Source: Podarcis vaucheri
Taxonomy: Eukaryota
Strand: one strand, 5' to 3'
Length of the DNA: 64,000 nt
Assembly (NCBI GenBank): GCA_965113315.1
Contig: OZ220369.1
How positions within the stretch are numbered: position 1 is the stretch's first letter; each line of letters starts with the position of its first letter. The position numbers and the translations under genes were made by a program. This document shows, in pieces, positions 3,421 through 37,630 of this stretch. Below the pieces are notes generated by a model. It was not told where the DNA came from. It saw only the letters and a program-made list of their open reading frames with translations, and did not search any database.

Positions 3421-5336
3421 CCCGGGGAAACATACCTGGCGCCATCAGTATCAGATTTCATATGACAGGCTAAAACCGTATTCATTCCCCATGCTTTTGG
3501 TTGCAAACATGGATCATGCTTTGGTACAGTTTCTGGCTTGATTCATAGCATTCATTTTTTAGTAGAGTGGGATAGGATTTGTCCTTTTTATACTTCTTGT
3601 TCGATGAGCACCCATGGAATTCTTTTCTATTGTGTTTTCGCTATGTATTTAATTTTTAAATGATTGCCAAGCCCTTTTGTATTTTATGGATTCGTAAGTC
3701 ACTTGGAGACATCTTCTTGTAGAGATGAAATAATAATAATGGTAATAATAATAATAGTAATAGACAGTCACTGGAGTACTAGACACATACTAAAGACTGT
3801 GATACGAAAGACCTCCCCACTGAGCATTCAGTGTTTTTATTCATCCCATAATAACTCTGCTAACCTACCTGACTCTAGGAATCATTTCAAGGCAAGTCTT
3901 GCCTGTCTTCCTGGTACTTGATACATATTCGGAGGCAGAGTATAAATTGTGGCTATTGAAAAGAGACTGGTGGAAGGAGAAAGGATCCAGTCTAGGGTGG
4001 CAAAGTGGACCTGCCTCATAATCCCTCTTCAATGTTTGTGCTAATGATGTATTGATTATTGATTAGAAGGTCATGGAAGTGTATTCCTTTAATCCAGTTG
4101 GTGGATCTTCCATTTCCAAACATCTCTTTCACATATTTCCCTCTTTCTCTCCCAGTTCTTTAATATCAACAAGCTGCTTCATATTTTACACCTGGGAGGA
4201 AAAAAAATTCCTGAGTATCAAATGCACTCGTGCATAGAGTAATTTGTTAATGTTGTGTTGATTTTATTAATATTACATTGAACAGCTTGGCTGTGCCCAG
4301 TGGAATGTTTGACTTTTCCTTTTTAAACAGCAGACCTCCGAGCCAAATGGCAAACTGCTTTTCACGCCCCTCCTTTGAAATTTCATAAGAACAGAAGAGG
4401 CTGGATACTGGATCAGGCCAAAGGTCCATCTCATCCAGCATCCTGTTCTCACAGTGGCTAGCCAGATGTCTGTGGGGAACTCACACGCAGTTTCAAACAA
4501 CTGATATTAATAAACATTACTTCCCCTGACTGTGGGGGCAGAGCATAGCCACTGCGTCTAGTAGCTATCAATAGCCTTACCCTCCCATAACTAAACAGTG
4601 CTTACATCTGGCACCATGGTCTGTGGAGAGCTGGCCTTAAATATACAAGCATTTGAAGTTTTTGTGTTTGTTTGTACACATAGTAATAGTGTGGTGCTTC
4701 TTTAGATTCAGATGATAGTATCTTGGGTGAACTATAATCTATAGACCTTCAGTTTTCATTTTGTAATAAAGAGTAAGTTTCTAGCATTTGTAGACCCTGA
4801 GATATGATGAAACACATACAAGCACTATTATTTTCAATTTTTATTTTTTGTGTGTGAGAAATTAGTCTGCTCCCAGCTTTCATTGTTTTACTACCACCAC
4901 CATCTCACCACCACCAAAAAATCTCTATGGGTAGTATTTAAGTTTGTCACAGATCTGAAAGAATGGAGAAATAAAGTATGGCATTGGACTTCCCCACACT
5001 CCCTTGACCAGTGGGTGTAGAAGGTTATTTGAGTAAGTAACAGCCACAGGTAACTGATCTGCCTGGAAAACAGCAATTTGGATGAGGCCTAATGTCACTA
5101 GGGATGACTAAGGAAATTGATTTCTGTGGATTCTAATACAAAGTGACATCCTAAGTTTTTGTGTGGATCAGAACTCATTTATCAGATTTCACTCTTTCCA
5201 AATGTTCCAACACCATTCTTGGCTGAAAACACTCTTATACTGAGAGAAAATATGGTTAGAAATTTATATTTTGAGAGAAAGTATTTTTTTAGAAAAATAC
5301 ATATTAATGTAATATTGAAATGCAAATTGGGTGTAT

Positions 5337-5383
<47 letters not shown>

Positions 5384-5459
5384 CGACGTGAGACCTCGTC
5401 GAAACGTCGCACAGACACCCCGACTCTTACACGGGAAGACACCCGAAGACACCAAAACC

Positions 5460-5509
<50 letters not shown>

Positions 5510-5592
5510 CTTTCGTAGATTTTCACGGGTACAGGAATGCAGGTTTTGGTGTCTTCGGGTGTATTCCCGTGTAAGAGTTGGGGTGTCTGGGC

Positions 5593-5626
5593 GACGTTTC
5601 GACGAGGTCTCACTCGTCATCTTCAG
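5593..5626 (-). ncRNA. Minimal hammerhead-ribozyme-like motif (copy in the 3' pLTR)
   Basis: Exact reverse complement of 6825-6858. Confidence 0.7.
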
Positions 5627-5863
5627 GCTGGTGCTTTCGGCTTCTTGTTACTGGAACAGAGCAGGATCTTAGTGTTTGAGTTCCTATAAATACTGTTGAG
5701 GGGGTGTGGTGTATAGCCTCCAACGTTCTGGGCAGAGAGGAAGTTCCTAGATTAGTGTGCCTTTTCTTCTTTTGTTCCTTAATTACTTGAGGGATATCTT
5801 GAGTGATTTCATGAGTGATATTCTGAATACCACTTAGGTGGGTCATTAAGTGTGGATTAGTTG

Positions 5864-6672
5864 CTAAAGCTTTCGTGTCTTGACCTCTTGAGCTTGTGAA
5901 GAGTTTTTCGAAGATGGCTGTGCTGCATTTAGTTGTGCTCTGGCTTGGCTTCGTGTATAGGGGCGAGCTGTGGTTTTGTGCCCTGTGCCAGCCAGATCTG
6001 TGTAGGGATTGCAGGGGGGTGCAGCATCCGGAGGTGCCACTATAGTTTGGCTACTGGATGGAGTTTGTAATTTATCTGTGGAGAGGGTCTGGGTTTGGGT
6101 CTGGTGTGGTTGATTGGTGACGGCGTTCTGTGTGCCTCTGGTTCTGGTGTCGGTTTTTGTGGGGAGGGCTAATTTCCAGATGTCTGGCAGGCGGGACGTG
6201 TCGTCACGCTTGTTCATGTTGTGAGGGTGTTTCTCTATCTCGATGGCTTCCATGATTATTCTCTTGTGGTGATGTTCCATGTTAAAGAGCAATTTGGAAT
6301 CTGCAAAATTAATTTCGTGTCCTGTTTCTTTCATGTGTTGGAAAAGAGAGGAAGTTTTTTCTTCTTTTTTGACGGCATTCTTGTGTTCTGCGATACGTGC
6401 ATTTATTCGTCTGTTTGTTTGTCCAATGTACGTGGCTGGGCAGACTTTGCAGGGTATTTCATAGACCCCTTGGTTTTCCAACTGGATTTTGTCTTTGGGG
6501 TTTCTGAGGATATTGGCTATTTTTTGGTTGGTGCAGAAGGCTGTTTTGATATTGTGTTTATGGAGGATTTTGCTAATTTTATCTGTAGTGCCCTTGATAT
6601 AAGGAAGGAGGGCCATGCCATTGTTTTCTTCTGTGTCTTGGTTTTTGGGGGGTGTTTCTTTTTGGATTAGCT
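5864..6672 (-). CDS. 5'-truncated Penelope-like element ORF: RT thumb/linker plus GIY-YIG endonuclease and a C-terminal extension
   Basis: ORF 5864..6706 contains LPYIKGTTDKISKIL...QGVYEIPCKVCPATYIGQTNRRINARIAEHK...EAIEI...NKRD, the typical PLE GIY-YIG motifs. The first ~11 codons come from junction DNA. Confidence 0.93.
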
Positions 6673-6824
6673 TGGTAACCCTGGTAACCCCTTGGTAACC
6701 CCTCAACAGTAACCCCTCAACAGGGGTTGAGGGGTTACTGTTGGTAACCCCTCAACAGTATTTATAGGAACTCAAACACTAAGATCCTGCTCTGTTCCAG
6801 TAACAAGAAGCCGAAAGCACCAGC

Positions 6825-6858
6825 CTGAAGATGACGAGTGAGACCTCGTCGAAACGTC
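6825..6858 (+). ncRNA. Minimal hammerhead-ribozyme-like motif in the Penelope pLTR
   Basis: CTGAAGA-T-GACGAG-tgagac-CTCGTC-GAAAC-GTC: CUGANGA box, 6-bp helix II, GAAA box and GUC triplet, with a palindromic ACGT in place of helix III. Confidence 0.7.
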
Positions 6859-6909
6859 GCCCAGACACCCCAACTCTTACACGGGAATACACCCGAAGAC
6901 ACCAAAACC

Positions 6910-6951
<42 letters not shown>

Positions 6952-7062
6952 CTTTCGTAGATTTTCACGGGTATAGGAATGCAGGTTTTGGTGTCTTCGG
7001 GTGTCTTCCCGTGTAAGAGTCGGGGTGTCTGTGCGACGTTTCGACGAGGTCTCTGAAGATGA

Positions 7063-7096
7063 CTGAAGATGACGAGTGAGACCTCGTCGAAACGTC
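7063..7096 (+). ncRNA. Minimal hammerhead-ribozyme-like motif (third copy)
   Basis: CTGAAGATGACGAGTGAGACCTCGTCGAAACGTC, core identical to the other two copies. Confidence 0.65.
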
Positions 7097-7129
7097 GCAC
7101 AGACACCCCGACTCTTACACGGGAAGACA

Positions 7130-7273: not shown

Positions 7274-8645
7274 ACAGAAATGGAATGGCAAGGGCTTATG
7301 AATGTGAAGACATGAGGAGGTGACGTAGCAAAAATAAATAAATAAAAAATCCATCCCTAAATGTCTTCGGTGGGGAGCATGTCTCATCTCCCCACAGCAG
7401 AAGACACCCTGTTCTTAGAGTGGCTGACCAGATGCCCCAATGGGAAGCAGAACCCAAGTGAAACAGCATTCCTCGCCCAATCAGGTTTCTAGCAACTGTT
7501 ATTCAGAAACATTACTGCCTCCAAAAGTGGAAGCAGAGCATATCCATCATGGCTAACAGCCACCAATAGCCCTCTCCTCCTCCATGTATTTGTCTAATCC
7601 TCTTTTAAAGCCATTTAGGTGGTGGCTATCATTGCCTCTCGTGGGAGTGAGTTCCATAGTTCCATTGCTACTTTGCATTCCAATCTTTAATTCTACGTTC
7701 TTTGCACAAGAGGGGAATGAGGTCAGCCACTGCTTCATGATCCATCCCATGACCTAGGCAGGATCCATGCCTTCTGAAACTGAAGTCGTTTAGATGTTTT
7801 AATCTGTCTGTTCCCTGCATTCCAGCCCCTTTTCTGGACTGTGTTTTTCTTCCTTAGCACACAGGGATGCAACCCCCCCCCAACAATTCTGTACTCCGTG
7901 CCTGCGTGCAAATTAAGGGTTGAGTTGTGCCAAATTGTTCCTCCAGCTTGTTCCGCACTCTTTACATTTCCTCCGTGTTTCCCAGCAAAATGAAATCATT
8001 AAATACACAGCGCAAATTACTAAACCTGTTCCATAATCACACACACACACATAATTGACAGGGTAAGAAGCTCAGATTGCAGCAAGGCATGCAGCAAAAT
8101 GTTTATGGCTGAGTCTTCTCCTCTCCCCCCCCCCAAGTTTAAAGGTCAACAAGAATATTTTTCTATAATTTGACAGGCACACGAGAAGTAACGCGACTCA
8201 TTTGTGGTCAGGTAATTCACAAAGAAATCTATAAATCAAGCTAAGAGGAATATTAGATCATGCTCATATCTGAACCCATCTGGCTCGGTTCAAGAAAGAA
8301 ATCAATAAGAGACAGGACGCTCGGAATTACCAATGATTTATGCCCTTGCATCCTGGGAGAGGAACATTTGCAGTTTGAGAGTCTCCTCCTCTGAGGGATG
8401 GCCTCTTTGCCCATGCAGTCATTTGGGGGAAGGAAATATTTTCAAAGGCACCAGTGATGCCATGTGACTTCCCAAGTGGTGTGCCCCAGGAGCTCCAACA
8501 ACATTGCAGAGGATTTTTGGGTACTCCTCTCAGATCATGTGGCACAGCAATTTGGACAGCATAATGTCTTGGGACTGTCCCTGCAACTACGCTCACAGGG
8601 ATAGGGTGTGGGTGGGTGCAACGGTAACTGTGCGGTCTCTTACAG

Positions 8646-11056: not shown

Positions 11057-13239
11057 GGGATACCACAGGAGGGAAGAGTGATCCTGCTTGTGAATTTCCC
11101 ACAGGCCTCTGGTTGGCCACTCTTAGAACAGGTTGCTAGACCAGATGGGCCACTGGCCTGATTCAGCAGGGTCTTACTATGTTCTTATCTTGCATATTAT
11201 TTATTCATTCATGTATTTAATGCATTTATATACTGTACCACCTTTCTCCCAAGTTGGGATTCAGGCTTAAACTGTGATGTGTTTATGCAACTATTCAAAT
11301 ATACCTGAGATGAGACGTGATATCACTGGTGGGGGGAGGGGGTAGAGAAAGAGAACACTCTAATTTTGTGGCAAGGTTAGAAAATGTGGTTGGCAGCTGT
11401 TCCTGCATCCTGAGATGAGACATTTTTACAACGTATTCACAGGGAAATAAATTTAAAGAGCAGTTTTTGATTACAGTTGCTGGAGAACAGACCATTTGTG
11501 CTGTGCCATTCTTTTCTGAATGACTCGGTGCTCTTGGGGCCAAACTGGATGTGACTGGGGAGTTCTGTGACTGGATCTCCTGAGTAGAGAAGGAGGAAAA
11601 CTCATCCAGTTGCCATTTTAATACAAACTTAGAGAATTTGCATTTCCTGAACCAATATACAAACTGAAACACAGCTTTCCTTTCACATCCCCTCTTCTCT
11701 GAATTCTGTAAGATTGCAAAACCGTGTGTAGTGAAAAGTGCATGTAAGAGTGGCTATATTAGTTTAAAAAAAATAAAGCAGAAAAATGCATTCTATGCTT
11801 GCAAAAAAAGCATTTATTAGGCAAATGCCCATAAAATACACACACATTTTAAAGCAAACTCTGTTTTCAAAAAAGCTTTCCAATTGATGTAGAAATGGGA
11901 CAGACTTAAGAGTGGGAAAATGAGAAACTGAAAGAAACTGAAATTGACAGATTCATCCTTCCTGAAATGAATAGGTTCATCCATGCCTAGCTGTAAGTTT
12001 TTGTCCCACTTATAAATGGATCTGGCTCACAGAACAGAGCAACGGAGTTTAAACCTTTCTGCCTTCCATTTTCCCAATGAAAACTCACACCCCACAACCA
12101 GCTATTTGTTATAGGCACATCATACCTATGGGGGGGGGAGTGCAGACATTTTAGAAAAAAGGTGAGTGAAGACTATGAAATTATACATGGTGTAGAGAAA
12201 GTGAATAAGGAGATATCCCCTCACGCCAGTCCAAGAATCCCAGAGTGATCCAGTGGCTCTGGTTAGGCAAAAGGAATCACTTATTCACACACTGCAATAG
12301 TTTAAACTGTGACATTTGCTACCACAAGAACCATTTGGATGGCTTTAAATGGGGATGAGACAAATTTGTCATAATGTCACTAGTCATAATGGGTATAACC
12401 CAATCCCAGTTTCAGAGTTGGTATGCTGTGAATGCTTGTTGCTGGGGGTCCTGCTATTGCCCTTCATGTTTTGCTTGTGGGTTTCTTTTGGGATAGGGTG
12501 AGGAAAGCCAGGACCACAGGTCAAATATGTGGTCCTCCAGGCTTTTCTGTGTGGCCCTCAGTCCACACCCCTCATCAGCCCTGCTCTGTGCCCATCTTTA
12601 GTGCTGGAACTGTGATAATTCAGGCCTGAGGGAGGATGCGGACAGCTATTTCTGTGTGTCTTTATATGCAGAAACCTTACCCTTTTGTGTGGCTGAAATG
12701 AAGCACGTTGTACAAAGGCACATCCCTTGCTTAGCCCTGGGGATGGAAGGAGCTGTCCATTTTGGTCCTCTCTATTTCTTGTTCTTCCAATCTTAAATGC
12801 AGTTCTCTGCATTTCTGCAACAATCTGTTGGTTTATTTAAAAAAAAAAATCCTCATGAGAATTCTTCAGAATTTCAGTACGAATTTCTCCCAGGGAGCAC
12901 ATTTTTAATTCAGCTTAACTGATATAAACGGTTTTGCAAATTGTTTTCCCTAACAGGACAATTTTTTGCACATTGTTTTCACCAATAAATGCATTCTTAG
13001 GTACACTTTCTCCTAATATAAGCATTTTTGTTAATACTGTAGTGTTTGGCTGGAGAACAGCACCACAACATTCAGATAAGTGCAGATTTCAGAGGATGGA
13101 TGTGTGTATTATTTCACAAATCTGATAGATTGAGCTTTGTATGTGAACTGAATCAAACTTATGCCCACTTTTGCCTCTGGAGCCATGCACCACTGGTGTG
13201 TGATTCCTGGAAGGATGCTCACAAAGAACCATTGGACTG

Positions 13240-16171: not shown

Positions 16172-17186
16172 CCTGAGAGAAGAGAGTATTCGCATTGTGA
16201 AAAAAGGGGAAAGCTGTAAGAAAAATAATAACAGAACTCTCCCTTTTAAGAAGCGTAAGTTGAAAAAGGAATTAATTCTGATATAATCTTTTAATAACTA
16301 TTTTAGCCTGGTTTGGGAGTTAAAGTCATTTAACAATTTGATTGTAACTAAGAAATAGTGCCCAGGTTTTCTTCTTTCCTCTTCCCTTCCCTTCCTTTTT
16401 ACATTTTGTGCCATTCACTTCAGATTGTTAGCTGTTTTCTCATTGACATTTATAAGCTGCTGCCTGGGAGTTACTTATAAGCTACTGTTCTCAATAACCA
16501 TGCCTATGCCTTTAAAACTGGGGGTGGTGGTATTATTTTGTTATGTTACGTATTTTTATGCCATAAACCACCTTGTGATCCTCGGATGAAGTTTATATAA
16601 ATCTAAATCATCATGATTATCATCAATGGGCCTTAGGTCTGATTCAGCAAGGCTACTTACGTTCATGAGTTACATGACTCATGATGAAACTCATGGGGCT
16701 AAGTCCTTGAAGGGCTGTTCTCTGTAAGCCTTTCAGGTATAAGAAGGAAGTGTTTCTCCAGTATCTCTTAGTGTTTAAGAACATAAGATGAGCCTGCTGG
16801 ATCAGGCCTATGGTCCATGTAGTCCAGCAACCTGCTCTCACAGTGGCCAACCAGATGCCTGCAAACCGCAAGCAGGATTCGAGCCCCAGAGCATTCTACC
16901 CTGGCATTCAGAAACATCGCTGCCTCCAAGTGTGGAAGTAGAGCACAGCCATCCTGGCCAGTAGCCATCAATAGTCACCCCCCCCCCAATGAATTTGTCT
17001 CATCCTCTTCTAAAGCCATCCACATTGGTAGCCATTACTGCCTCCTGTAGGAGCAAGTTCTATAGTTTGAGTCTGCACTGTGTGAATAAGTCCTTTCTTG
17101 TATCTGTCCTGATTCTTCCAACATTCAGCTTCATTGAACGTTTGTGCAATGTGAGTGCATGGGGGGGAGGGGAGGGGGGAGGGAGG

Positions 17187-27352: not shown

Positions 27353-27788
27353 CTTCTGCAGGGGGAATTAGATACTATAGATATTAATTCCAATTAACCC
27401 CCATTTGGTAGTTTGAAAAGAATGTGTTGGATACCTATATCCAGAAACATGGGGCTAAATAATGCTCTTTCCAGTAAGAGAGTGCCAGCAGAAATTTAAA
27501 AAGGCACAAGAGCCAGTGGCATGGTGAAACATGGGAAATACAGGTTGTTAGACCCTTTTAAAATACCCCATTTAAAAACACATCCAGTGCTTTCCCCCAC
27601 TCTCCTTCCCTAGCAGTGAACAGACCACATAATTTAGTAAGTTTAAATGGCTTTTTTTTACTAAACCTCTTCAAAGATTCCTGCATTACAGGGGGTTGGA
27701 CTAGATGACCCTCACGGTCCCTTCCAACTCTGTGATTCTATGAAATGTCATATTCTTATGTTTATCCATGCTGCAGTAAGTAATAAAA

Positions 27789-28133
27789 AAAGGTAAAGGT
27801 ACTCCTGCCCGTACGGGCCAGTCTTGACAGACTCTAGGGTTGTGCGCTCATCTCACTCTAGAGGCCGGGAGCCAGATACTTCCGGGTCACGTGGCCAGCG
27901 TGACGAAGCTACTCTGGCGAGCCAGAGCCGCACACAGAAATGCCGTTTACCTTCCCGCTGGTAAGCGGTCCCTATTTATCTACTTGCACCTGGGGGTGCT
28001 TTCGAACTGCTAGGTTGGCAGGCGCTGGGACCGAGCAGCGGGAGCGCACCCCGCAGCGGGGATTCGAACCGCCGACCATGCGATCGGCAAGTCCTAGGCG
28101 CTGAGGTTTTACCCACAGCGCCACCCGCGTCCC
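27789..28133 (-). mobile_element. Sauria SINE (Squam1)
   Basis: Reverse complement begins GGGACGCGGGTGGCGCTGTGGGT and ends in an (ACCTTT)n tail; TSD-like GCAGTAAG(T/C)AATA on both sides. Confidence 0.9.
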
Positions 28134-28155
28134 TAGCAGTAAGCAATACAATGGT

Positions 28156-28309
28156 CAGTGGCGTAGCGTGGGGGTGCAGGGGGGGCCAGCCGCACTGGGC
28201 GCAACATCGGGGGGGCGTGCGCTCGCACTCGCAGCTCTCTGCCCCTACCTGGCAGGGGCACAAATTACTTGCCTTGCCCCGGGTGCTGACAACCCACGCT
28301 ATGCCACTG
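28156..28309 (-). mobile_element. hAT MITE, same family, copy 3
   Basis: TIRs present; 8-bp TSD ACAATGGT. Confidence 0.9.
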
Positions 28310-29772
28310 ACAATGGTACAAAAATCTTGTGTGCGCAGTGTGGTAAAACCACACCTCTTGGTCTGATCCAGCAGGTTTCTTCTTTTTATCATCTTTATTA
28401 AATTTACATGCCTCCCTATACCCAGGGGTCTCAGGGCAGTATATTCTGCTCTAAGCCTCAGGGGTCATAGTTAGGGTTCAAACATTTTCCCTCCAAATGA
28501 CACACACTGTGCTCTGCCCCAGACTTTCCTCAGGCTAACTTGGACTTTATAGAGTATCCAAGTCAGCTTCCTGAAACTTTTACATCGGTCCTTGAACAAT
28601 TGCCAGGAAGGATGGGATTGCAGTTAATTCTAACATAATTTTTTGTCCAGGGCTGACCTCAGGCATTTTTCTGAGCAGAAAATGACACTTGCAACCTCTC
28701 CCCCTAAACACATCAAGGTTTCCAAGGCCAGCCAAGTTGCTTTGGCACCTGAGACAGAAAATCCCACAAGTGCCTCTCCTGAGCTGAGAAAAGGCAATAG
28801 TAATAAATTAAATAGCTAACTGTTCATGGCACCCCAAATCAGCATCTGTCTCACTTTCCCTAATGGTAGGGTCAGTTTTTTTGTTGGTTTTTTGAGCGGT
28901 GTATGTCTCTCACTCCTTTTGACTGAGCACAATCAGCAACAGAGTGCAGCTGAAATAATTTTGAATTCTCTATTACCGAAGCCAGCAGCAGTCACCGTCT
29001 TATGATTCATGGGAAGCAGAAGTTTGATCTGAGTGGTGGGAAGAACTGAGACTGCTGCACTGATTTTAAAAATAACCTATGGCTGTAGATCATTTGTTAA
29101 TTATAGAATAATGCACTGAAAGGCTTAAATTTAGCCTCTCCTGGGAACTTTCCAGCGTATGTGATGTAAGCACAATAAAGTCACATGAGCTCAGCTTACA
29201 TTCAGATTTTGGTTGGTGCCAAGTGAGCAGTCGAATCAGAAGCCCCTCACAACACAATAATGTTGCATGAAACCTTGGAGAGCCACTTCCACTCCCTGTA
29301 GACAATACTGAGCTCGATGAACCAAAGGTCTGAGTCTGTACAAGCCAGCTTCCTATGTTCTGTGACAGCAAATTTATTTACTTACTAAATTTATTTACTT
29401 ATCATTCAAATAGTCATGGTTCCGTGGCACAACCGGTACTGCAGTGTGAAAATGATGTTAGAAAATAGGACAGAAGCGTTTGCATAATAATCAGGAAAAC
29501 TAGTGCAATATTCCCCATATCTGTGTGCACTCTTGGTGGAGACATGCACTAGTAGCTGAAACTCTCATGCAACTTGCCATTAGGACTGAGCAGCACAGAC
29601 AACTCCCATGAGAAGCAGGACCAGAGCCTCAGGCAGCCTAGGAAACAACTGGCAACCAGATGTAGTGTGTGCTGGGTAGAGGGAACTTGCAGAGTTGCTG
29701 TGTGCTTGGAAGAGCAGTAACGCATTGTGCATAGTGATGGGGGGGGGGAATTCAGTTCAATTCACATTTTAA

Positions 29773-30136
29773 GGGACGCGGGTGGCGCTGTGGGTTAAAG
29801 CCTCAGCGCCTAGGGCTTGCCGATCGAAAGGTCGGCAGTTCGAATCCCCGCGGCGGGGTGCGCTCTCGTCGTTCGGTCCCAGCGCCTGCCAACCTAGCAG
29901 TTTGAAAGCACCCCCAGGTGCAAGTAGATAAATAGGTACCGCTTACCAGCGGGAAGGTAAACGGCGTTCCGTGTGCTGCGCTGGCTCGCCAGATGCAGCT
30001 TTGTCACGCTGGCCACGTGACCCGGAAGTGTCTCCGGACAGCGCTGGCCCCCGGCCAATAGATGTGAGATGGGCGCACAAACCCCAGAGTCTGTCAAGAC
30101 TGGCCCGCTCGGGCAGGGGTACCTTTACCTTTACCT
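29773..30136 (+). mobile_element. Sauria SINE (Squam1), full length and CpG-rich (young)
   Basis: GGGACGCGGGTGGCGCTGTGGGTTAAA head, B-box GTTCGAATCC, (ACCTTT)n tail. Confidence 0.92.
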
Positions 30137-30658
30137 AATATGCACTTACTGAAACTATACCCAAACCAAAATGCCATGACCTTTTGTGATCACACCCACC
30201 CCAAGGAAGACTTGAGACGGTGCTTTAAGTTGGGGAAAAGGGTTATATTTACTATATATAACATTAAGGGGATATTGAGGATCTGCAGATAAAATCCATG
30301 AACCCAATTTGTTCCAATGCAACCAAACCAACCAAAGTCCAAGCAGGAAAGTTCCCCACTTAGAGGGGAATCATCTCCTTCCCAACTCATGAGGTGATGA
30401 AAGTGCCCTGCAGTAAAGATTGGAAGGAGTTCTTCCTCCTTGCTACATCAACACTGGACAAGCTCGCCTCGGCCCCACTGGTTTGGCATTTATCCCAATG
30501 TACATGCCCGGTCCCTTCTGAGTTTCAGATACCTGGTCAAAGCTGTCTTACTTCTGGAAGTCTTTGTGCCCTGAATGCTCCTCAGATTTTTACTTGCTCT
30601 TTCTTGGAGATTTTGAAATTATTGAGGTTTAAGATTTTTGAGGTTTGATTTACACATA

Positions 30659-32860: not shown

Positions 32861-34520
32861 TATATCTGACGGTCTGTCTGTAACATATGCACAGTTATTC
32901 CACTGAATGTTACTCAAGCAGGAAGAAGCGAGTGCTAAACGTGTACAAGTACTCGTGCTTCAGACTGCCAGTCACTGTCTCTGTTCCTTATTAACTCGTG
33001 GGTGGCTGATGTGTGAAAGGCAGAGTGCGTTTTCCAGAGCTCTTTTTAATTGGAGGTTTCACGTTAACAGCTCAAATGAAGATTAGCGGGGGATAGCTCA
33101 TCTCAGAATAATGCATGCGAATTGAAAATCACCTTGACAAAACAGATGGAGCTCTCAGTCATTAGGGAGAGAGTGTTTGTGCTGTTTCAGTGACAGGCAA
33201 ATTACTCACCATGACTTTAAAGATTAAGAGGACTAGTATTGGGTGAAAGCAGCCTTGATGCATTTGGGTATGAAAGTTGCTAAAATAATGCAAGGAATTG
33301 TACTTTTCCTACTGGTGCCTATCGTATTGCTTTCTTGAAGCTTAGGAAAGCTGTTGCCTTCCCTCTGTGCACACCCCACTTCCTCTCTTGAAGTAGGATA
33401 ACAAAGCAAAGGAATATAGGAATATATCCGATAGGATATAGGGTTATATCTGCTTGGAGCAGCCTATGTTTCCTCCTCATCTGTATTTTCCTGAGGATAG
33501 TGCAAGGGGACAGGGGTTTTGGGTGAGGTGTCCAGCGGTGGAGCAAGCCGATCGGGCACCTGGGGCAGCGCTGTTAGTATTGTAATGTCTCATTCTCACA
33601 TTGCATAATGTTGCAGGTTGCCTTTAATTACTTAATTGATGTATGAGTATGGGAACTATTTAAATGTCTCCTCTCTCTGCTCCTCTGCTGAAGAAGATGG
33701 ATGTGAGAGTTGTCTTGTTGTTTTGTTATTTGCTTTATAAATAAGACCTTTGATGTTACCATTCAAACCACAGTTGCTTCTGCCGCATTCTGCTGTAAAG
33801 GACTGAGTTTACTATCTGCAAATGGGTGTTTAATGCTTACAGGCGCATGTGTGTCCTGTGCCCAGGGGCAGGGCCAGCCACCTGCAGAGTGGGGCAAACT
33901 GGGGCAGGATGCTCTGCAGGGCCTTGGAGGAGTCTGCCTGCCTCCTCCCACTCAGCCACCCTACAGGTGAGGGGGGAGGTGGCTGGCAGACCGTTCGGGG
34001 CAGCGCGGAGCCTGCAGGTGCCCAAGCCACTGTGTCACTCCCAGGAGAGACGCACGATGAGTGCCACCCAGCATTTCGTCACCCCCCTCAGTGGTGACCC
34101 ACCCCCCACCACACACCCCTTCCTCTGTCCCAGGGGGTGTCACAATTTGAGACCTGCCTTCCTTTGTAGTTGGTTGCAGTACTTTGAAGATGCTGTCATA
34201 GTATTGCAGGTCCACTTGGAAGAGGATGAGCCAGCAGTGAATCTCCTCGAACAAACGATCTGCTGTTCCTTTCCAAAGGATGGGATTGAGAATGCTTTGA
34301 ACTATGCTTTGTATTGACAGGGCTACACTTTAGCTGCCTCAACCCTCTTCTATACATGTTGTGCACATGTTTAAATTTAGGAAAGAGTTGTGCAACAGAG
34401 TCCCGGGACTAAGATTGCGGTCCACGAATCAGTGTAATTATTTGCTCTGGGTGGGGCAAAGTTGCTTCAGGAATTTGCAGTGCCAAACTTGGATGGCATT
34501 AAAAGAGGATTAGGCACATT

Positions 34521-35034
34521 AGGGGACACATCAGGTAAAAGCCTCAGCGCCTAGGGCCAGTGGCGTAGCGTGGGTTGTCAGCACCCGGGGCAAGGCAAGT
34601 AATTTGTGCCCCCTAACTCGTGGATTTGCACCCCCTAACCCGTGGTTTGCGCCCCCTAACCCTAACCCCCAGATGTTGCGCCCGGTGCGGCCAGCCCCCC
34701 CTGCACCCCCCACGCTACGCCACTGCCTAGGGCTTGCCGATCGAAAGGTCGGTGGTTCGAATCCCTGCGGCGGGGTGCGCTCCCGTTGCTCGGTCCCAGT
34801 GCCTGCCAACCTAGCAGTTCGAAAGCACCTCCGGGTGCAAGTAGATAAATAGGGACCGCTTACTGGCGGGAAGGTAAACAGCATTTGCGTGTGCTGTGCT
34901 GGCTCACCAAATGCGGCTTTGTCACGCTGGCCATGTGAAGCGCTGGCCCCCGGCCTCTTAAGTGAGATGGGCGCACAACCCTAGAGTCTGTCAAGACTGG
35001 CCCATATGGGCAGGGGTACCTTTACCTTTACCTT
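34521..35034 (+). mobile_element. Sauria SINE interrupted by a hAT MITE
   Basis: Same body and tail as 29773-30136; TSD TTAGGCACATT (34510-34520, 35035-35045). Confidence 0.9.
34558..34725 (+). mobile_element. hAT MITE, same family, copy 4, nested in a Sauria SINE
   Basis: Perfect TIRs; the 8-bp TSD CCTAGGGC duplicates SINE sequence. Confidence 0.92.
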
Positions 35035-37518
35035 TTAGGCACATTCACGGAGATGAAGGCTATCAGTAGCTGCTAACCACAATGCTCATCCTCTGACTCT
35101 GCTGTTGGAGGCAATGTGCCTTTGAATGCCATTGTGAAGAAAACTGTTGAGCTCCGGTCCTGCTTGTGTTCTTTCCACCGGAATCTGGCTGACCACTGAG
35201 AGAACAGGATGTTGGATTAGATGAGCCACTGGCCTGATCCAGCACGATATTCTTCTTATGCTCTTATGGTGATTAGGGGCAGGGATGCTGGCTCCTGGCT
35301 CCTCTGCTAAGCATATCAATGTGTTTTTATGGGGAGACCATGAAAGGGTGCAACATGAACAATTATTTTTTCACATCATAGATTGCAGATTTTGGTGCCA
35401 CAATAATCTTTATTACTTTTAGTTGTGACATCTACGGATTATGTAAGCTTGGGGGCAAAAGGTGTGCATGACCCTCTTGCCTACTACAACTGCTTAACAC
35501 AAATATTACATGGAATAGTCAGAGGCATTTTTTGTAGTACACCATCTGTTCACCTAGGACACTGGGCAGGCTTACTTGGTCTCAGTTTGACACCACTGCT
35601 AAGCCCTTAGGAACACTGAAAACACAAGGCACTTTGGTTTCAAGAGAATGGGGTGCACGTTCTGTTATGTACAATAGAATTTCACAGAAAACACAAGTTA
35701 CACACAAAAAAAGGTAGTGTACCACTCCAAATCCTTTGCCCATCTAAGTGCACAGAAAATAGTAGATCTAGCTGAGATGCAACACCTAGAGAGCTGTACT
35801 GACCATTGCAATGCATCTCTAATTATTATATAATTAAAAGATTATTGCAAAATCTTAAAAAGTTGTATAATGTTGGGAGGAGTGTGGCTGTGAGCAGGCA
35901 TGGCTGTGACCATCATAAAGGGATCCTGCACTTCTGAATTTGCCATTTCACTTCTCTTCTCAACTGAAGAATGTTGCTGAGAGTCCAGACTAACTCAGGA
36001 CTCCCCAGAACACAGTTTGAAAGCCACAACTGCAGGCCTCGGTGACCCACCTTAACCATAATTTGGGGACTCTGGAAACAAACTCTCATAATTCCAAGAA
36101 CAGTTTTGGAAACATTTGCAATTCAGATATGCCCTAGAATGGTTCTAGTATTTGTTTATGCCCAAAAGGTTTTTCAAGCATGGAAATGTCCCAATATGTG
36201 CCATTCTTATTTTCGTATAATAAATGCAAACTCAACCCTCAAACCCTGGAAGCTACTACTGCAAGTTTAATTTCCATTAAACACAGACAACAGACGATGA
36301 AATAACATTCTGATAACATTTATCCTGAACTATGCCCCCAAATGAATAGTGCATTCTTGTTTAATGTGGACAAACAAGAGCAATAAATGTAGATACTTTA
36401 TTTTCTTATGAGTATAATATTGAGTACAAAAAAGCTGTAAATTCCTCCTGCAGCTGGGTTGTCCCTTTTTATTGCTGTTTAAAACAAGCCTTGGGATTCC
36501 CACTCCCGAACTCCAAAATGTCACTGGTTGCTTCCATGGCCAGCATTCGAGGTGGGTGGGGTTAGGCAATAGCTGTGATTCTTGCATTGCAGGGAGTACG
36601 GCTAAATTACCCTTGGGAGTCATAGAATTTTACAGTTCTATGATTCTATTAACAGCTGGGTCTGGAAGACTTTTGAGCAGACCCACTTCCGATCCTCCTC
36701 CCTGTCAGTCCTCTTATATATTATAACTGAGATGTGTTGCCTATGAGTAGCAGGTTTTGCCCAGGTGCTCCTCCCTCTGACCTCCTCATGTTTAGAGGCT
36801 GGCTGTCCTAAGTAAAAGCACTTTGTTGTACTTTATCCATCCACCCACACATAGCCAGGGACACAATGGAACCAGGATGGCGAGGGCCCAAGAGTTCATG
36901 AAGTTCTGGAGCGGACTATGGTTGCCTGTTCCTAAAAGGGTGCAATCAGCTTCCACTCCCAAATTGGCAATTCTCAGCAAGGTGAGAGTCCTGATCCTGT
37001 CCCTCTGCTAGGACAACAATGAACAGATATGAACTTCCTATGCCTAGAGATGCATATGCAATATTTATTAGTTTTGTCTAAACTGGGGCTGGGGAATCTG
37101 ATTCAGCCCAAGGGCTACAACATCACGTTTGAAAAATGTTTAACTAAAAGGAAAGTACAACCTTGCAACAAAACGGTATTTGTCTCAATGAAGGACAGGC
37201 TGTAAACTGTTTAAATAAATAAGCAAACTCAACCCTACAGCCACCAGAATTATAAAGAAAAAATAAAGCAGCATGAGAATGGCAACTTTTCTAACAGGGA
37301 AAGGAATAATTGGGGAAATTGGAGGACAGGTTTTGGGTATGGCGCTAGGAGAGATTCAGAGACTTAGTGAGTGTATGCTTCTCTTCTCCTGCCCTCCCAA
37401 CCCACAGGTGGCCTTGGAATGGAAAGGCAGCTGAGATAATGACCCTAATCTCTGCTTTGGAGACGGAGCACATTTTCTTCTTTCCCTGGTCCCAAACTGG
37501 ATTGATTTGAGGACGTCA

Positions 37519-37630
37519 ATGATGAAGCTGACCTGCATGTTCTCCTTCATCCTGCTGTTTGGAGCAGCTGGGCTGGTTGTCTTCATCCACCTGCAGGATC
37601 CAGAAGAAATTGTTCATCAGCAAACACCAG
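37519..37630 (+). CDS. CHST8: First coding exon of carbohydrate sulfotransferase 8 (GalNAc-4-O-sulfotransferase 1); encodes the cytoplasmic tail and type II Golgi membrane anchor. The exon including 5'UTR spans 37408-37630.
   Basis: Translates to MMKLTCMFSFILLFGAAGLVVFIHLQDPEEIVHQQTP(G), closely matching the recalled mammalian CHST8 N-terminus (MRLACMFSSILLFGAAGLLLFISLQDPTELAPQQVPG). Pyrimidine-rich acceptor ends cccacag at 37407; phase-1 donor CAG|gttaga at 37630/37631. No downstream coding exons were recognised in the window. Confidence 0.92.

Follow-up and report, generated by a model that had tools for sequence, protein, structure and literature searches.

Three identical hammerhead motifs, placed on both strands of a probable intron of the lizard Podarcis vaucheri, raise the question of whether they act on the transcript of the gene in which they seem to lie or belong to something that has its own reasons to carry a ribozyme. 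The window, which is the whole stretch of 64,000 nt from contig OZ220369.1 (assembly GCA_965113315.1) analysed here, suggests the latter. With a probability of roughly 0.9, we consider the three motifs to be the terminal-repeat hammerhead of a very young retrotransposon of the Penelope/Poseidon type, present in three likely separate insertions in one (TA)n tract, and likely to be without effect on host RNA, since long hairpins are predicted to keep them locked. The ribozyme would instead act on the element's own RNA and, by analogy with the related element of Anolis, would likely need the protein of the element to do so.

Hammerhead copies and anatomy of the insertion cluster

As described in the initial annotation, an identical 34-nt motif is present at 5593-5626 (-), 6825-6858 (+) and 7063-7096 (+), and each copy can be parsed as a minimal hammerhead composed of the CUGAAGA box, a U, helix II, GAAA, the palindrome ACGU and C17. 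[quoted passage not shown] The additional U noticed between A9 and G10.1 is real and turns out to be the middle letter of the start codon of the element (A9-U-G10.1). A helix I of 2 bp, which had been ascribed to all copies, holds for copies 5593 and 6825 and fails for copy 7063, where a 10-nt duplication has replaced the 5' strand and leaves an A-G mismatch at the first helix I pair. By inspection, no longer helix I is evident adjoining the core, and a splicing event that alters helix I, as in D. virilis, was rejected, as an intron of 25 nt would be required. A loose hammerhead core pattern occurs nine times in the window with 7.7 occurrences expected by chance, thus without excess; two additional partial copies, at 5388-5464 (+) and 6950-7053 (-), lack the CUGANGA box. 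Rfam reported no hammerhead at gathering score over the window and, over 5300-7129 up to E = 10, 80 matches which all score below the gathering thresholds, include no hammerhead family and are mostly to microRNA hairpin models, which we read as a reflection of the inverted repeats.

When mapped against a natural full-length copy of the element, L026, with the A of the start codon numbered +1 and the preceding base 0, the region 5340-7129 resolves into three units with (TA)n tracts between them. The tract at its left edge (5340-5381) is the likely target. Unit 1 (5381-5464, +), in which an 8-nt remnant of an inverted arm precedes a fragment of the pseudo-LTR (pLTR) from +8 to +84, lacks the CUGANGA box and has kept GAAAC-GUC; its part 5388-5464 is 96% identical to the full-length copy. 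Beyond a second (TA)n tract (5463-5506) follows unit 2, one 5'-truncated element with an inverted arm that accommodates both copy 5593 and copy 6825. Its long arm (5508-6683, -) consists of the last 1,176 nt of the element, that is the end of the ORF, the 3' pLTR and a 30-nt tail ending at +113, and is 100% identical to L026 over these 1,176 nt. The arm includes the 3' piece of the ORF (5864-6683, -), which encodes the linker and a GIY-YIG endonuclease (E = 0.00047; 20.9 bits, below the cut-off of 22.6) and is devoid of the reverse transcriptase (RT) because of the 5' truncation, the first hammerhead copy (5593-5626, -) with its 2-bp helix I and start codon at 5620-5618, and the tail itself (5508-5536, -; +85 to +113), which according to the mapping and the arm-end counts lies between two recurring 3' ends and agrees with the 30-40 bp tail described in PMC11167929.

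The 64-nt inversion junction (6684-6747) holds repeated short copies of both arm ends and a small palindrome, an appearance which resembles the templated insertions of end-joining repair. The inverted short arm of unit 2 (6748-6914, +) covers the pLTR from -82 to +84, is complementary to 5537-5703 at 100% over 167 nt and contains a TATA-like box at 6759-6766 as well as the second hammerhead copy (6825-6858, +), with a 2-bp helix I and the start codon at 6831-6833. Separated from it by the (TA)n tract at 6913-6946, the short neighbouring unit 3 has a left arm (6950-7053, -) from +10 to +113 that lacks the CUGANGA box and is 96% identical to the full-length copy, the above-mentioned 10-nt duplication at its junction (7053-7062, +) in place of the helix I 5' strand, and a right arm (7063-7129, +) which starts exactly at C3, carries the third copy (7063-7096) without helix I and enters an N stretch. 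This right arm contains -5 to +9, absent from the left arm. Units 1 and 3 are both 96% identical to L026 and show variants of a commoner subfamily; unit 2 probably derives from a different source copy, and the units appear to have been inserted separately. The 100% identity of unit 2 to L026 suggests that it was inserted very recently. An older family of short repeats is also represented in the window, by diverged copies (80-85%) at 4408-4472, 7496-7614, 16797-17019 and 11102-11187.

A young Penelope-like family with inverted arms

The exact 34-mer occurs 11,140 times in the 1.61-Gb genome (5,582 forward, 5,558 reverse), equivalent to one motif per 145 kb, and its reversed control 0 times, which indicates that the identity of the three copies reflects recent expansion of a repeat and not local selection. 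A 43-nt version which includes the helix I flanks, missing in copy 7063, still has 10,732 genomic copies. Long genomic matches to the element are 98-100% identical (40 scored of 1,038 candidates), and the commoner subfamily differs from the L026 type by approximately 2% over the last 1.2 kb of the element; the median arm identity of 97% in 39 sampled clusters is an identity between subfamilies and is not usable as an age.

The full-length copy, L026:993-3707 (-), contains an uninterrupted frame of 905 amino acids beginning at the hammerhead ATG, with the first methionine encoded by A9, U and G10.1 and the cut site 25 nt after the start codon. In this single ORF, of which the window holds only a 3' piece, an RVT_1 domain (358-536, E = 2.7e-15) is followed by a C-terminal GIY-YIG domain (705-744), a weak match (E = 0.0011) below the Pfam cut-off. 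That the hammerheads reside in the pLTRs of a Penelope-like element, as the initial annotation had presumed, is supported. The intact frame, with 100% identity to the long arm in the window over 1,176 nt, suggests that the family is still active. Among 1,976 protein matches, the best named relatives are from Podarcis muralis, with 99% identity and 70% of the query covered, Vipera latastei, with 82% identity and 60% covered, and Anolis carolinensis, with 45% identity and 96% covered. The step from 82% in Vipera to 45% for the best Anolis protein might reflect horizontal transfer between lacertids and vipers, or merely a missing Anolis paralogue.

From its sequence features, the element is filed under the EN+ Penelope-like elements, in the Penelope/Poseidon clade, although none of the 1,976 matches carries the name Poseidon. 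The linker between RT and endonuclease is, as read from the sequence and the alignment, without the extra cysteine motif which is present in Neptune and Nematis (PMC8557442). Direct or inverted pLTRs combined with 5' truncation, and a 30-40 bp tail often at one end only (arm ends in the sampled clusters), are further features of the Penelope/Poseidon clade found here; inverted 5'-truncated copies and a one-sided tail are described for Penelope-like elements in PMC8557442. A literature search combining Podarcis and Penelope, judged by titles and the beginnings of abstracts and with most subscription papers and the repeat databases outside its scope, retrieved no paper on this family, which may nevertheless be catalogued already. 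The family, which counts 11,140 identical hammerheads and keeps a full-length frame intact, represents a recent, possibly ongoing burst of a Penelope element in a vertebrate.

How ordinary the arrangement is can be seen from the first 100 listed motifs, which span 12.6 Mb of contig C1 and fall into 44 clusters. Motifs on both strands are present in 30 of these, at least three motifs in 11 and two same-strand motifs within 350 nt in five. For arm mapping, 39 of the 44 clusters, all other than that of the window, were retrieved as 40 stretches, a sample chosen for intact motifs. Arm 3' ends cluster at +83/84 (52/110) and +113/114 (54/110), with a TA run abutting the 3' end in 98/110. The head-to-head units combine one long and one short end in 31 of 37 cases, two long ends in four and two short ends in two (p = 2e-5 vs one half); with a duplicated unit removed, long/short pairs still make up 30/36 (p = 3e-5). 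At the 5' side, 31/106 arms start between -45 and -28, 12 of them at -41 and seven at -36. An apparent pile of 55 arms at -43 was rejected as an artefact of subfamily differences, as it disappeared once another natural reference was used. None of the 106 arms in this sample starts at the cut site (+27 to +29); since sampling for intact motifs makes arms that start inside the hammerhead visible only as partners (12/106 start at +1 or later), their absence is weak evidence.

Some sampled loci stand out by their architecture. L057, L065, L067 and L088 hold perfect palindromic mini-elements with both arms from -41, and others start from -36 with short inserts (L065, L074); run-off may have produced them repeatedly, or they may all be copies of a single mini-element. 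At L035:3100-4200, four same-strand hammerhead units, spaced by approximately 254 nt and each accompanied by a TA run and an inverted short piece of the tail, look like a tandem array born from pLTR stubs, as proposed for retrozymes.

Integration of the element can be envisaged as follows. The element endonuclease would cut the (TA)n target, reverse transcription would start within the ORF, at a distance of 84 or 113/114 nt from its beginning, and a pair of truncated cDNA arms would become joined head to head at their truncated ends, an arrangement that puts hammerheads on both strands; later copies would land in TA runs beside earlier insertions. Since -41 sits 30 nt past the TATA-like box, we infer a transcription start there. 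As to how the two arms arise, one tentative possibility, to which we give a chance of about one in three, is that a dimeric element protein primes both strands of the cut (TA)n, with cDNAs from +113/114 and +84 and from RNA left uncut by the hammerhead; the initiation site in its 5' copy would be the origin of many cDNAs, whose synthesis would run off at the transcription start approximately 30 nt past the TATA-like box, giving hairpin mini-elements of 120-155 nt. The excess of long/short units (31/37) and the arms that begin at -45 to -28 (31/106), with none at the cut site, speak for this model. PAc, the Poseidon element of Anolis carolinensis, is reported to nick and extend both strands of AT-rich DNA, is a predicted dimer and initiates reverse transcription internally, at two sites between which the tail lies (PMC11167929). 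In 30 long/short units compared (one unit split by the reference cut was left out), the short-ended arm extends more than 10 nt further 5' in 13, the opposite holds in four, and both ends lie within 10 nt in 13. Each arm in those first 13 units accordingly possesses sequence absent from the other and neither is a plain copy; unit 3 of the window, with -5 to +9 on its right arm only, resembles them. Against two-ended priming, later deletions at the centre of a palindrome could create such asymmetry, and among the longer units 5' ends within 60 nt of each other are found in 6/17 vs 1.6 expected after re-pairing (p = 0.0025), near-symmetric junctions which fit the published fold-back model, in which self-priming was proposed (PMC3846280). 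Both routes, two-ended priming and fold-back, may operate. The insertion junctions can test the origin of the inverted arms and of the tail, and whether hammerhead-cut RNA ever serves as a template.

Host gene context and the predicted fate of its RNA

Approximately 30 kb downstream of the cluster, the first coding exon of a CHST8-like gene (37408-37630, +; ATG at 37519) supports the statement that the + strand is the sense strand of the gene. A Sulfotransfer_2 exon, for which the nearest Atlas cluster is carbohydrate sulfotransferase 9, is located 181 kb further on the same strand and may belong to the same gene, which is presumably CHST8 judging from its N-terminus and its position beside PEPD; an AMP_N exon, encoded by the opposite strand, is situated 117 kb upstream of the window. 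Putative RNA contigs from two of four runs (one each) cover the exon 37408-37630 and depart from it at the donor. An upstream exon is reached by neither of them, the downstream loose end has no match in the window or in the 10 kb that follow, and two raw-read runs, of which 6% and 12% were examined, gave no reads on this exon. Within the 164 kb scanned, one CpG island alone is not a repeat copy, a unique sequence of 2.1 kb (L044:3400-5500) that is located 26.6 kb upstream of the window and holds a donor-like site on the + strand near 4481. It probably represents the promoter together with the first exon of the CHST8-like gene, and its position makes it likely that the cluster lies in a 5'-UTR intron. 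Three CpG-rich patches in the window, as well as one far upstream, were not accepted as promoters, being repeat copies; those at 27701-28500, 29601-30200 and 34401-35100 are copies of one repeat of roughly 360 nt, likely a SINE. The pLTR promoter in 6748-6914 could also drive + strand transcription by itself.

Any + strand RNA of the cluster would comprise three sense arms and two antisense arms, and the antisense partners of the + copies extend over 167 nt at 100%, 82 nt at 93% and 52 nt at 100% identity. The predictions are for secondary structure at equilibrium and omit tertiary contacts of the ribozyme, proteins and fast co-transcriptional events. In each of the three folds tested, only one of the two + copies retains helix II. 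In 6780-7129, copy 7063 pairs with 7002-7053 (P = 1.0), and a dimer lies 42.6 kcal/mol and the single possible core 22.8 kcal/mol above the free ensemble. In a nascent RNA ending at 7100, copy 6825 is paired with 7030-7053 and the respective costs are 33.9 and 14.0 kcal/mol, and in the whole cluster copy 6825 pairs with 5537-5703 at costs of 107 and 87 kcal/mol. The left arm of unit 3 (6950-7053) is therewith a predicted antisense trap for both + strand hammerheads; copy 6825, which is intact, would be free for roughly 170 nt of transcription until the trap emerges. In the fold of 5330-5671 (-), the minus-strand copy 5593 is likewise captured by unit 1, with whose antisense it forms pairs at P about 1.0.

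Hairpins of this kind might themselves matter to the host, as double-stranded RNA that would undergo editing or dicing, by which the CHST8-like transcript could be dampened or disturbed. The fold-backs, 52-167 bp long with 93-100% identity, and a fold z-score of -17 speak for such a role, which is also compatible with the insertion of a young retrotransposon as the best explanation. The same arrangement is, on the other hand, common to many of the sampled clusters and nothing singles out that of the window, so that a role as a regulator of the host gene is probably unimportant; we regard this reading as unlikely, if the most plausible of those that assign the cluster an effect on host RNA.

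Considerably less probable, in our estimation, is a single cut of an unpaired copy assisted by the element protein, in cells that make this protein and with a partner RNA transcribed at a different one of the approximately 11,000 loci, where the pLTR promoter at 6759 could supply + RNA without CHST8. The family has an intact frame, one of the three + strand sense arms stays unpaired in every fold, and the Anolis ribozyme, which does not cleave without protein, cleaved on addition of the protein, endonuclease-dead protein included (PMC11167929). According to the same source, however, no RNA-seq reads end at the cut site in Anolis, and in an insertion assay the protein required a template that included the ORF's first 172 nt, compared with at most 113 nt in the arms mapped here; the 0/106 arms at the cut site, from a biased sample, point in the same direction. 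If the protein did help to cut intronic copies, many lizard transcripts would be exposed.

The initial annotation had proposed that copies 6825 and 7063 could form a double hammerhead in the CHST8 pre-mRNA, which would cut it or free a small linear or circular RNA. Both copies are indeed in the sense orientation of the gene, 238 nt apart, at a probably intronic site and with intact cores and the ACGU palindrome, and minimal hammerheads cleave as dimers, albeit with low activity (PMC4209133). Copy 7063, though, is without the 5' strand of helix I, so the core that would cut after 6858 cannot close; as it cannot serve as enzyme strand, one cut after 7096 is the maximum and no linear or circular piece would be released. 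Neither two complete cores nor an accessible dimer fold, as a functional intramolecular double hammerhead would need, emerges from the models, and the probability of helix III pairing between the copies is 3e-14 for 6780-7129 and reaches 1e-8 when the nascent RNA up to 7100 is folded, in which copy 6825 is already occupied by 7030-7053. Published work agrees, as the PAc ribozyme of Anolis did not cleave without protein, its cleavage was dispensable for insertion and no RNA-seq reads ended at its cut site (PMC11167929). This proposal finds no support and is the least probable of all.

Elsewhere in the sample, L031:5977-6300 and L077:449-700 hold pairs of hammerheads on the same strand, at distances of 180 and 204 nt, and no intervening antisense copy was seen in either. 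Three same-strand pairs without an antisense copy gave 14.0, 14.6 and 23.5 kcal/mol and one with an antisense copy 51.7 kcal/mol, so that in this fold model pairs without antisense arms still cost 14 kcal/mol or more. The L031 and L077 pairs, with a predicted cost of 14 kcal/mol for that of L077, are better double-hammerhead candidates than the pair in the window.

Comparison with known systems

Hammerheads in amniote introns are known from RECK, CTCL and DTNB (PMC6155905). The Podarcis copies share with them type I topology, a likely intronic position and the sense orientation of the gene, but those ribozymes are conserved across amniotes and are drawn with tertiary contacts, whereas the Podarcis copies are minimal, repeat-borne and very recent. 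Non-LTR retrozymes (bioRxiv 10.64898/2026.07.22.740005) are likewise short non-coding hammerhead units derived from pLTRs; they are described as head-to-tail tandem arrays with a complete hammerhead in consecutive units, and a retrozyme was rejected for the cluster, as the Podarcis units are arranged head to head, are of unequal lengths and are separated by (TA)n.

Closer are the minimal hammerheads that metazoan Penelope-like elements carry (Cervera and de la Pena, 2014; PMC4209133), with which the motif has in common the type I core, the unpaired nucleotide 9/10.1, G10.1-C11.1, a long helix II, the palindromic 15.2-16.2, pairs on opposite strands and thousands of copies. Helix I of 2 bp, as in D. 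virilis, differs from the 4-5 bp of the hammerheads in that study, and the uniformity of the 11,140 identical copies contrasts with the heterogeneity stressed there, D. virilis (97/130 identical) excepted.

The nearest described system is PAc (Frangieh et al., 2024; PMC11167929), in which a single ORF with RT and C-terminal GIY-YIG also begins at helix II of the hammerhead, the cut site follows 26 bp after the start codon (25 nt in the Podarcis element), two recurring 3' ends about 30 nt apart bound the tail, and the targets are AT-rich. The 3' ends at +84 and +113/114 of the Podarcis element compare with a start region of 111-118 in PAc. The two nevertheless belong to separate families, the best Anolis protein, presumably PAc itself, being 45% identical, and they differ in that the Podarcis element targets (TA)n tracts and shows inverted arms in most of its sampled clusters.
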